Positions 12,214-14,630 of a stretch of 51,453 bases of DNA are shown here, in pieces. The DNA lies in assembly GCA_040755315.1 (NCBI GenBank), contig JBFMBF010000006.1, positions 1 through 51,453 of the forward strand. Reading direction: 5' to 3'. The translations under genes and the position numbers were made by a program. The DNA is from Candidatus Hadarchaeota archaeon. Its GTDB lineage: Archaea; Hadarchaeota; Hadarchaeia; Hadarchaeales; Hadarchaeaceae. Position 1 is the stretch's first letter. Each line of letters begins with the position of its first letter. Below the pieces are notes generated by a model. That model was not told the DNA's origin. It ran no database searches and worked only from the letters and a program-made list of their open reading frames with translations.

Positions 12214-12301
12214 TGGAGCCGCCGGCGGGAATCGAACCCGCGACCTACGCCTTTTTGTGCGAGATACCAAGGCGTCGCTCTACCGACTGAGCCACGGCGG
12301 C
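12214..12301 (-). tRNA. tRNA-Thr(GGT) with 12-nt intron at 37/38 (12253-12264)
   Basis: GCCGCCG/CGGCGGC acceptor, GGTTCGATTCC T-loop, ACGCC-TT-GGT-A[TCTCGCACAAAA]A-GGCGT, encoded CCA; 76 nt after splicing. Confidence 0.93.
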
Positions 12302-12359: not shown

Positions 12360-13145
12360 ATGAAGGTAGGCTTCATAGGCGCGGGGAAAATGGGGATTTC
12401 ACTCCTGAAGGGGATGCTGAAGTCAAGAGCTCTCGAGCCTTCTCAGGTGACCGTGAGCGAAACCGACCCAAAGAAGCTCAACGCCGCGCGCGCCCTGGGA
12501 ATAAAGGCTGCTCCGAGAAATGAAGCTCTGGTCAAAATTTCCGATGTGGTCTTTATCGCCGTGAAGCCAAACGATGTCGAAACCGTCCTCAAAGAGACAA
12601 AAGCCGTCTCAGGCGGGAAGCTCTTCATCTCAATCGCCGCCGGGGTCACGACCAAATTCATCGAGCAGAGGACTTCCGCGAGGGTAATCCGCGTGATGCC
12701 AAACATTGCCGGGGCCATCGGGGAGATGGCGGCTGGCTACTGCCCCGGGAGGTGCGCCAGGCCGTCCGACAATAAGTTGGTGGAGAAGCTGCTCGGGAGC
12801 ATCGGTGTCGTCTTCAAAGTGAAGGAGCCTCTTATGGACGCAGTAACTGGGCTGAGCGGCAGTGGCCCAGCCTATGTCGCCTATTTCATCAAAGCCATGG
12901 CGGAGGCTGGCGAAGAGCTGGGGCTACACGGCGCAATCTCTCTGGCCCTAGCGGCGCAGACCGTGAAGGGCACCGCTGAACTGGTGGGCCTGGGGGAACT
13001 GCCAGGCGAACTTATCCAGCGGGTCTGCACGCCCAAAGGAACTACAATTGAGGGGATGACGGTCCTGAATAAAAAGAAAGTCGACGACGCCATAAAGAAG
13101 GCCGTGAAGGCTTCGGCCGCCAGAGCAAAAGAGCTATCGAGGTAG
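12360..13145 (+). CDS. proC: Pyrroline-5-carboxylate reductase
   Basis: GFIGAGKMG, AVKP, RVMPN, TGLSGSGPAY, VCTPKGTT. Confidence 0.96.
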   Translation: MKVGFIGAGKMGISLLKGMLKSRALEPSQVTVSETDPKKLNAARALGIKAAPRNEALVKISDVVFIAVKPNDVETVLKETKAVSGGKLFISIAAGVTTKFIEQRTSARVIRVMPNIAGAIGEMAAGYCPGRCARPSDNKLVEKLLGSIGVVFKVKEPLMDAVTGLSGSGPAYVAYFIKAMAEAGEELGLHGAISLALAAQTVKGTAELVGLGELPGELIQRVCTPKGTTIEGMTVLNKKKVDDAIKKAVKASAARAKELSR

Positions 13146-13523
13146 CTCCTCCGGCGCACCCTCTTGAGTCTCCTGGGTCTCTACAAGCCTCTTCCTGATC
13201 TTGGCCGGAAGCTCCTTTGACTTCTCGTACGCGGCGTTGAGCTCTGAAACGGTTTTGTCGAGGACCGTGGCTGGCGGGGCCTCAATCTTTTTTCTCTTTG
13301 TCCTCTCGGCCTCGTAAACAACCTCCTCAAACCTGACCGTCTGGATGTCCCACAGGTAGTCGCCCAGCAGGGTCACCGCAACGAAAATCTTCTTGCTTTC
13401 CGGATCCTCAAAGTGCTTCTCGGCCAGCAGGATGGTGTATGAGGTGAACCAGCCATAGTCCTTATCCAGCGTCCCAAGGAACTTTGGGGCGTTGACGCTT
13501 TTTCCTATCAGTTCGATCTTCAT
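13134..13523 (-). CDS. Hypothetical protein (~129 aa)
   Basis: Open frame from MKIELIGK; the longer track ORF overlaps the tRNA, so the start was trimmed. Confidence 0.7.
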   Translation of the reverse strand: MKIELIGKSVNAPKFLGTLDKDYGWFTSYTILLAEKHFEDPESKKIFVAVTLLGDYLWDIQTVRFEEVVYEAERTKRKKIEAPPATVLDKTVSELNAAYEKSKELPAKIRKRLVETQETQEGAPEELPR

Positions 13524-13586
13524 GGACTCCGACAAACTCTTGTCGCTCGTTGATTTAAAGCGGGAGGTCATGGCGGAGAAATTTTG

Positions 13587-13758
13587 TGGTGCGGATGGGG
13601 GGATTTGAACCCCCGGCATTCGGATATCCGACCTAAGACTTCAGTTTTGTCCCCCAACGGTTAAATCCATCAGGGTCCGACACTTTTGGGTCGGGTGTAT
13701 CCCGATCTCCCATTTCAGTCCGGAGGCGTTGCCTTCCAGATGGCTGAGTTACATCCGC
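13587..13758 (-). tRNA. tRNA-Phe(GAA) interrupted by four BHB introns
   Basis: Removing introns 13741-13713, 13706-13685, 13676-13646 and 13638-13626 gives a canonical 77-nt cloverleaf: GCGGATG TA ACTC AGCCTGGGA GAGT G TCGGA CTGAAGA TCCGA ATGCC GGGGG TTCAAAT CCCCC CATCCGC ACCA. Confidence 0.92.
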
Positions 13759-13763
13759 ACCGT

Positions 13764-14421
13764 TTACTTTTCGTTGCTTGAATTTAAAGACTTCTTCCAT
13801 AACTCATGCTTTCGAAGATGCCGTGAATTAGAAAAACCTATTTCTTTCATCCATTTTTCTACCATTGCGCACCCGGACAATCTAACATAAATCTGGTGTT
13901 CCATGTTTTTTCTTTTCTTAGCTGTTTTCTGAAGTATACACTAAATCCTCTTTTTTCTAAAATCTTAGTTAGCTGTTCCGCCAACTTTACACTTGTCGTG
14001 GAAATTTGAATTGAAGGATAATACCTTCCACTTCTAGACTTGGCGAGCGAAAAACATCCATCTGTGTCAGCTATGCCGCGAATGCATCCCCTTAGAATAT
14101 TCCAAGAAATATAAAATTTTTTAGGTATAGTGACTTTTTTGCCTTTGCCTCTTCCGTAAGGCAGCCCCAATTTTTCTGTAAACAGCACGAAAACCTCTTT
14201 TGAACAAATCCTAAATTGTATTGAGCCGGTAATTTTTCTTTCACGAACATAGGGTTCCCTGTTAAATAGTTTTTGACTATTTTTTGGAAATGTTTGTAAT
14301 ATTCTTTGTCAAGTTCCGGATGACCGTTCAAATCTATTCTGTAGTGTCTGCTGTCTCTCCAAAGGTTTCCGTCCCTGATGACCGCACCGACTAATTCAGC
14401 AAGCGATTCAGATATTTTCAA
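13764..14421 (-). pseudogene. Double-motif LAGLIDADG endonuclease-like pseudogene (two frameshifts)
   Basis: Motif 1 LAELVGAVIRDG, motif 2 CIRGIADTDG, C-terminus ...KWMKEIGFSNSRHL in a third frame; shifts near 14272-14276 (A5 run) and ~13890-13940; AT-rich. Confidence 0.85.
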
Positions 14422-14489: not shown

Positions 14490-14630
14490 GCTTATAAGTG
14501 CACGAATTCTTCATCAAACTAACTCCAAAGTGCCATTTGCGCCATATTATTTGTATAACAACTCCGAAAGTGATGTTTTAGAACCTCTAGCGGGGACACG
14601 GATTTAAGCCCGCCGACATTAGGTAAGCTG

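Follow-up and report, generated by a model that had tools for sequence, protein, structure and literature searches.

Introns bounded by a bulge-helix-bulge (BHB) structure are a well-known feature of archaeal tRNA genes, for which the peer-reviewed literature, in the portions available, gives a maximum of three per gene (PMC4033280, PMC8450103). The nearest counterparts to the gene analysed here are the multi-intron tRNA genes of Thermoproteales (Pyrobaculum, Thermofilum and Caldivirga; Sugahara et al. 2007/2008, as cited in PMC4033280 and PMC8450103), which carry several short introns with BHB or relaxed motifs, many of them non-canonical, and in which adjacent introns that cannot form all their motifs at the same time are described as being removed stepwise (PMC8450103). 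A single tRNA gene can carry as many as five intervening sequences in Asgard archaea, according to a bioRxiv preprint of October 2026; its own example is a tRNA-Phe(GAA) with a missed D-arm insertion, and Hadarchaeota do not occur in its text (10.64898/2026.10.13.758758). Among lineages of euryarchaeal grade, M. kandleri combines an EndA without a specific loop with a pre-tRNA-Glu(UUC) whose D arm holds a relaxed HBh' intron, that enzyme being (alpha-beta)2 and the introns single (PMC5829648). The same paper (Kaneta et al. 2018, PMC5829648) covers a member of the phylum studied here, Hadesarchaea archaeon YNP_N21; its available text gives neither a per-gene intron count nor a four-intron gene for this archaeon, and one supplement mentions neither Hadesarchaea, YNP_N21 nor Phe. 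Our full-text literature search found no four-intron tRNA described for Hadarchaeota or Hadesarchaea.

We analysed a tRNA-Phe(GAA) gene in a 51,453-nt stretch of archaeal DNA, hereafter the window, from an assembly designated G000. The host belongs to Hadarchaeota: of the 30 loci closest to its splicing endonuclease EndA, 25 come from records whose titles name Hadarchaeota, Hadesarchaea, Hadarchaeum, Hadarchaeales or Hadarchaeia, the best being 95% identical. A preliminary description of the window had proposed that the gene is split by four BHB introns, and the exons and introns are all present in the sequence with the coordinates, lengths and motifs first given for them (Table 1). Taken together, the evidence presented below makes it very probable that this 172-nt stretch (window 13758-13587, minus strand), with its five exons and four introns, is the single functional tRNA-Phe(GAA) gene of its host, giving one precursor from which four BHB introns would be spliced by proteins. 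As in Thermoproteales, the gene combines several short introns, many non-canonical, with neighbouring motifs that cannot all form at once, but it has four introns where the described maximum there is three, and its host is not a member of Thermoproteota. The novelty that the preliminary description saw in exceeding "up to three introns" is only partly kept: four introns exceed the peer-reviewed maximum, and the Asgard preprint goes beyond both numbers.

Table 1 Features of the tRNA-Phe(GAA) gene and its upstream region (window positions; arrows mark the predicted junctions within the bulges)
Feature	Position	Strand	Description
TTTAAA box	13783..13788	-	some 25-30 nt upstream of where the mature tRNA begins; read in the sequence; probably an archaeal TATA-like promoter element
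Exon 1	13742..13758	-	17 nt; tRNA positions 1-17, comprising the acceptor 5' strand, 8-9, the D-stem 5' strand and the D-loop start; aligns with intronless orthologues
Intron 1	13713..13741	-	29 nt, at 17/17a; HBh'; central helix TCAG/CTGA, bulges CC↓A and AA↓T, inner helix 6 bp
Exon 2	13707..13712	-	6-nt micro-exon TGGGAG, positions 17a-22; carries G18 G19
Intron 2	13685..13706	-	22 nt, at 22/23; HBh'; central helix TGGG/CCCA, bulges AG↓A and AA↓A, inner helix 5 bp
Exon 3	13677..13684	-	8 nt, positions 23-30: D-stem 3' strand, 26, most of the anticodon-stem 5' strand
Intron 3	13646..13676	-	31 nt, at 30/31; full hBHBh'; central helix TGTC/GACA, bulges GG↓A and AA↓A, inner helix 9 bp, outer helix 2 bp
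Exon 4	13639..13645	-	7 nt, positions 31-37; carries the anticodon GAA
Intron 4	13626..13638	-	13 nt, at canonical 37/38; relaxed hBH (bulge-helix-loop, BHL); central helix CTGA/TCGG, bulges AG↓T and AT↓A; the anticodon stem serves as outer helix
Exon 5	13587..13625	-	39 nt, positions 38-76, from the anticodon-stem 3' strand through the variable loop, T arm and acceptor 3' strand to the discriminator A and the encoded CCA

Joining the five exons in silico produced the fully paired 77-nt molecule that had been predicted, which ARAGORN identified as tRNA-Phe(gaa) with complete acceptor (7/7), D (4/4), anticodon (5/5) and T (5/5) stems. The joined tRNA has a D-loop of 9 nt, a variable loop of 5 nt, a discriminator A and an encoded CCA. 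Anticodon GAA, discriminator A73 and G20 are identity elements of tRNA-Phe. All three are present, the anticodon by ARAGORN's reading and the A before CCA and the D-loop G20 in the exon sequence itself. A TTTAAA or TTAAA box occurs at a similar place upstream of several orthologues of the gene; a scan for sigma-70 promoters, a model unsuited to archaea, returned no match. On the downstream side, a 161-aa open reading frame with no Pfam match (window 13134-13619, minus strand) has its listed start inside the 3' exon of the tRNA, its true start probably being an ATG about 17 nt past the CCA end.

All four introns have a fully paired central helix (4/4) and two 3-nt bulges at the predicted junctions. 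We classed the motifs as hBHBh', HBh' or hBH after Marck and Grosjean, as defined in the Asgard preprint (10.64898/2026.10.13.758758), with a flanking helix of at least 2 bp; such a helix is available to every one of the four introns, to intron 4 only after the others have been removed. Introns 1 and 2 have an outer helix of just 0-1 bp. No inner helix is usable in intron 4, where the outer helix grows from 1 bp in the unspliced sequence to 5 bp once the other introns are taken out. The motifs of introns 1 and 2 abut, U17a being both the last bulge base of the first motif and the first helix base of the second.

We searched the DNA of 60 relatives and then that of the whole order (65 genomes), and found matches to the full-length gene at 71-76% identity in several genera, with partial matches in many more. 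The tRNA-Phe gene was resolved in 38 of the 65 genomes, and the counts of intron states refer to these 38, the other 27 having been left out because they gave no match at the DNA-search thresholds or because the locus was not retrieved. Four introns were present in 9 genes, three in 2, two in 17 and none in 10. The nine genomes with all four introns span five genera, namely G000 itself (g1), G012, G019, G024, G029 and G068 (g11), G003 (g2), G013 (g12) and G031 (g8); introns 1, 2 and 3 were found in G022 and G034 (g8), introns 1 and 2 only in G004 and G049, and introns 3 and 4 only in 15 genomes, including both same-genus relatives of G000 (G001 and G002). All introns fell at the same four insertion sites. 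Introns 1 and 2 occurred together in 13 of 13 genes, with an invariant micro-exon between them in each, and introns 1 and 2 on the one hand and 3 and 4 on the other tended to be present or absent as blocks.

The relatives also supplied the sequence expected of a spliced product. The joined exons of G000 were identical at 74 of 74 positions to those of the two-intron gene of its same-genus relative G002, and at 72 of 74 to the intronless gene of G017, both differences forming one compensatory pair in the acceptor stem. The intronless G017 gene scored 69.8 bits on the Rfam tRNA model, by which none of the two-, three- and four-intron orthologues tried (4 loci) was detected. The tRNA-Phe gene adjoins gatD in genomes with four, three, two and zero introns; the different intron states are therefore alleles of one locus. 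No genome among the 38 resolved held two different tRNA-Phe alleles. Such use of intron presence and absence between close relatives to define junctions is shared with the Asgard preprint, as is the finding of multi-intron genes with many D-arm introns missed by annotators (10.64898/2026.10.13.758758); the present host differs from those archaea in its phylum and its small genome of about 1.2 Mb. Because the four-intron state is common to five genera at one syntenic locus, with block-wise presence and absence of introns, we infer that it is probably of long standing in the family, with repeated losses.

As a separate observation on these alleles, intron 4 starts with TTCCCAGG or a close variant in loci L012, L015, L016, L022 and L026 (genomes G002, G014, G005, G001 and G009, respectively), and with a similar sequence in L007, L028 and L069-L071. 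In the same tRNA it has a complementary counterpart, CCTGGGAG, in the D-loop/D-stem exon sequence, with 7 Watson-Crick pairs and one G-U pair between the two. The 13-nt intron 4 of G000 itself does not contain TTCCCAGG.

The region directly 5' of the gene holds a degraded two-motif LAGLIDADG homing-endonuclease gene (window 13767-14421, minus strand), broken into three frames (14421-14092, 14188-13859 and 13865-13767), the tail of which overlaps the tRNA promoter region. Compared with G002, the interval between tRNA-Phe and gatD is longer by roughly 850 bases, most of which are taken up by this remnant, and a homologous remnant (44-54% identity) lies at the same place in G001. Its position raises the alternative that the four-intron allele is not ancestral and that introns 1 and 2 arrived recently by gene conversion linked to the LAGLIDADG gene. 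In keeping with such an event, homology with G002, which has introns 3 and 4 only and no LAGLIDADG gene, breaks at window position 13653 and resumes at 14602. Against it, G001 has the same remnant beside its tRNA-Phe and yet is without introns 1 and 2; no LAGLIDADG gene was found within about 1.5 kb in the loci of 24 other relatives, including six four-intron genomes with full upstream flanks; and no donor is visible, no sampled genome having these introns at more than about 76% identity. An arrival of introns 1 and 2 tied to the homing endonuclease is thus distinctly unlikely, and an old four-intron allele remains our preferred reading.

Covariation among the orthologues was evaluated for the predicted helices of introns 1 to 3. 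For introns 1 and 2 (13 genes), 94.6% of cells were paired, compared with at most 51.2% when the partners were slid out of register; 6 pairs and 26 cells had changed on both sides, and the covariation score was reached by none of 500 shuffles. The pair between exon position 15 and intron 1 covaries, being GC in 7 and AU in 6 of the 13 genes, and two inner-helix pairs of intron 2 change on both sides (UA in 8 and CG in 5 genes; AU in 7 and GC in 6). For intron 3 (25 genes, 22 of them distinct), 98.6% of cells were paired against at most 54.6% in slid registers, with 27 cells changed on both sides and the score again unmatched in 500 shuffles. Intron 4 was weaker in this respect: its central helix, scored in a fixed register in 18 genes, had 4 pairs in 5 genes, 3 in 11 and 2 in 2.

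The two detection tools used did not recover the gene, in keeping with what the preliminary description had anticipated of standard scanners. ARAGORN did not call the unspliced locus with its intron option on or off, and the Rfam tRNA covariance model did not find it in the window or in the whole genome; only exon 5 drew weak, partial Rfam matches of a tmRNA- or tRNA-like kind at E ≤10. The assembly, which is 86.6% complete, contains no second tRNA-Phe that we could find: elsewhere the gene matched over the T arm only, and the anticodon GAA occurred once among 39 verified tRNAs. A second tRNA-Phe gene may nevertheless exist, because the assembly is 86.6% complete.

That degree of completeness, together with the silence of ARAGORN and the Rfam tRNA model, would also fit a decaying or non-functional tRNA-Phe copy that has taken up insertions while the working gene lies in the unassembled part. 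We regard this as very improbable: the exons match those of the same-genus orthologue without a single difference and those of the intronless one with only a compensatory change, the motif helices have been kept by two-sided changes across genera, the locus is the syntenic tRNA-Phe site beside gatD, and none of the 38 resolved genomes has two different alleles.

The number and boundaries of the introns were addressed with a SPLITS-like solver, which anchors the T arm and a complementary acceptor strand, recursively removes BHB-bounded stretches and accepts full cloverleaves only. Under strict rules (central helix 4/4, flanking helix of at least 3 bp), the locus had a single solution, the four-intron one, which attained the top score for the cloverleaf (29/29). 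Relaxing the rules brought up 11 solutions of three or fewer introns, with scores of 26-27. In a control of 500 dinucleotide shuffles of the interior, in which the acceptor and T arm were kept, some cloverleaf was obtained in 34, a score of 27 in 7 and a score of 28-29 in 0. Because 34 of the 500 shuffles yield some cloverleaf and 7 reach 27, the solver is on its own only moderate evidence for four introns, and the comparison with relatives is decisive.

A real gene with fewer than four introns or with other boundaries, part of the extra sequence being kept to enlarge the D-loop or to lengthen the variable arm, would agree with the relaxed-rule solutions and with the caution in the Asgard preprint that some D-arm insertions may not be introns (10.64898/2026.10.13.758758), but it is highly improbable, since those solutions score below the 29 of the four-intron one, carry other anticodons (GAT, GGG) and require a variable arm of 11-18 nt, since relatives lacking each insertion have exactly the sequence that the four junctions predict, and since the micro-exon with G18 G19 does not vary. 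The four BHB-type introns at 17/17a, 22/23, 30/31 and 37/38 accordingly stand as first proposed, on the paired central helices, the sole strict solution, the orthologues and the covariation of introns 1-3. Self-splicing group I or group II introns were rejected, no Rfam ribozyme family being matched in the window at gathering score or in positions 13400-13950 at E ≤10 and the introns being only 13-31 nt long, and so was a split or permuted tRNA gene, the five exons being collinear on one strand within 172 nt.

A census of the other tRNAs of G000 placed the gene in its genomic context. The census is heuristic and incomplete: 48 loci were compiled, of which 9 were dropped as low-scoring or unconfirmed by ARAGORN, and 5 of the 21 second-pass loci were Infernal tRNA hits without a solution. 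The 39 ARAGORN-verified genes had 43 introns, to be set against 0.84 per gene in the intron-rich Thermoproteales (PMC8450103). Eleven genes had no intron, 17 had one, 8 had two, 2 had three and 1, the tRNA-Phe gene, had four. Both three-intron calls are doubtful. The tRNA-Lys(TTT) call (C8:3377-3577) has a score of 27 and an 81-nt product before CCA, and was left out of the resulting table of 38 genes; the tRNA-Trp call probably represents two introns, one 58-nt canonical intron having been split by nested removal. The tRNA-Phe gene is for this reason the clear extreme of the genome in intron number. Among the 40 intron calls of the 38 genes, 18 were at 37/38 and the rest were non-canonical, many of them in the D arm and at 30/31. 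A blastn-short comparison among the 40 introns recovered a duplicate tRNA-Val intron only and no match for the Phe introns; unlike the situation in Thermoproteales, as far as the available accounts describe it, the Phe introns resemble no other introns of the genome and show no sign of intron transposition.

Several of these tRNAs merit separate mention. Three genes that ARAGORN called "Phe(aaa)" resolved as Thr(GGT), Arg(CCT) and Pro(TGG). The tRNA-Thr(GGT) gene lies in the window (12217-12301, minus strand) and has a 12-nt canonical intron with a central helix of 3/4 and an outer helix of 5 bp; ARAGORN returned it as "tRNA-???" or "Phe(aaa)", and the Rfam tRNA model scored it at 64 bits. The tRNA-Trp(CCA) gene (G000:C23:19357-19509, plus strand) has a 22-nt intron at 25/26 besides the probable single canonical intron of 58 nt, which contains GATGATGA and CTGA, resembling box C and box D motifs. 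We take this to be reminiscent of the guide-RNA intron of euryarchaeal tRNA-Trp. The tRNA-Val(CAC) gene is present in two identical copies with the same 13-nt intron (G000:C17:24581-24665 and G000:C25:1-85), one of them at a contig end, and the pair represents a true duplicate or else a repeat created in assembly.

Genes for the two enzymes of tRNA splicing were identified in the genome. The EndA match at G000:C30:4392-4649 (112.7 bits; gene of about 180 aa) is the sole EndA gene found in G000, and RtcB is encoded at G000:C10:23966-25273 (597.9 bits). Across the order, EndA was matched in 58 of the 65 genomes, with exactly one match in 55 of those, and the open frames were mostly about 175-200 aa. 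The G000 enzyme aligned end to end with the alpha4 enzyme of M. jannaschii (E = 1e-36, one 1-residue indel), its best PDB match being M. kandleri EndA (5x89, E = 4e-45). Neither the 9 residues inserted in the A. pernix alpha subunit (the crenarchaeal loop) nor the 5 inserted in the ARMAN-2 enzyme are present in it. By these alignments, EndA of G000 is a single-unit, alpha4-like enzyme.

This places the enzyme apart from those otherwise associated with such introns. According to PMC5829648, relaxed motifs depend on (alpha-beta)2 or epsilon2 enzymes that possess a specific loop. In contrast to Thermoproteales with their (alpha-beta)2 EndA, the present genome has one single-unit gene without the crenarchaeal specific loop; the L1 loop described throughout Asgard EndAs (PMC5829648) is likewise absent from it. 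M. kandleri, with its two-subunit enzyme and single introns, differs in turn from a genome with one EndA gene and a tRNA that carries two adjacent introns in the D arm and two in the anticodon arm. In PMC5829648, a Hadesarchaea EndA is assigned to the alpha4 class, is said to carry an "L3" loop C-terminally and is tied to increased tRNA gene disruption; we did not locate this loop in our EndA alignments, in which there was no insert relative to M. jannaschii EndA. Introns 1 and 2, which lack an outer helix, and intron 4, which lacks an inner one, thus appear mismatched with a plain single-unit EndA, an apparent discrepancy that is directly testable in vitro.

We further compared the intron motifs with predicted folds of the precursor. 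In the minimum free energy fold of the entire precursor (-71.1 kcal/mol, z = -3.78), the acceptor stem and T arm are present together with the motifs of introns 1 and 2; the motif of intron 3 is absent. Forcing motifs 1, 2 and 3 cost at most 1.0 kcal/mol each. Forcing motif 4 cost 4.3-8.0 kcal/mol with intron 3 present and 1.3-2.8 kcal/mol once intron 3 had been removed. According to these models, the motifs of introns 1, 2 and 3 should be able to form in the primary transcript. Intron 4 is probably excised after intron 3, because its motif needs the anticodon stem, which intron 3 interrupts.

From the motifs and the enzyme genes, we infer that EndA would cut within the two 3-nt bulges flanking each 4-bp central helix and that RtcB would ligate the exon ends, giving the 77-nt tRNA with its perfect cloverleaf. 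More tentatively, a loop-less single-subunit (alpha4-like) EndA may remove relaxed HBh' and hBH introns in an obligatory order, with the abutting D-arm motifs and intron 3 first and intron 4 last, a proposal that we put forward as possible rather than likely. If true, it would run counter to the rule by which (alpha-beta)2 or epsilon2 enzymes bearing a specific loop are needed for relaxed motifs and multi-intron tRNAs.

These results extend four-intron tRNA genes to Hadarchaeota, a phylum of euryarchaeal grade. Generic tools leave the genome without any tRNA-Phe, which would distort estimates of the tRNA complement and of completeness for these metagenome-assembled genomes. The 38 orthologues, with 0, 2, 3 or 4 introns at fixed sites, give the exact junctions without RNA data and provide a comparative series for intron gain and loss. 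Alleles of one syntenic gene with 0, 2, 3 and 4 introns occur within single genera of Hadarchaeales and, if the proposed course of splicing is true, the order would offer a natural experiment in how tRNA introns are lost block by block, for example via partly spliced RNA copies.
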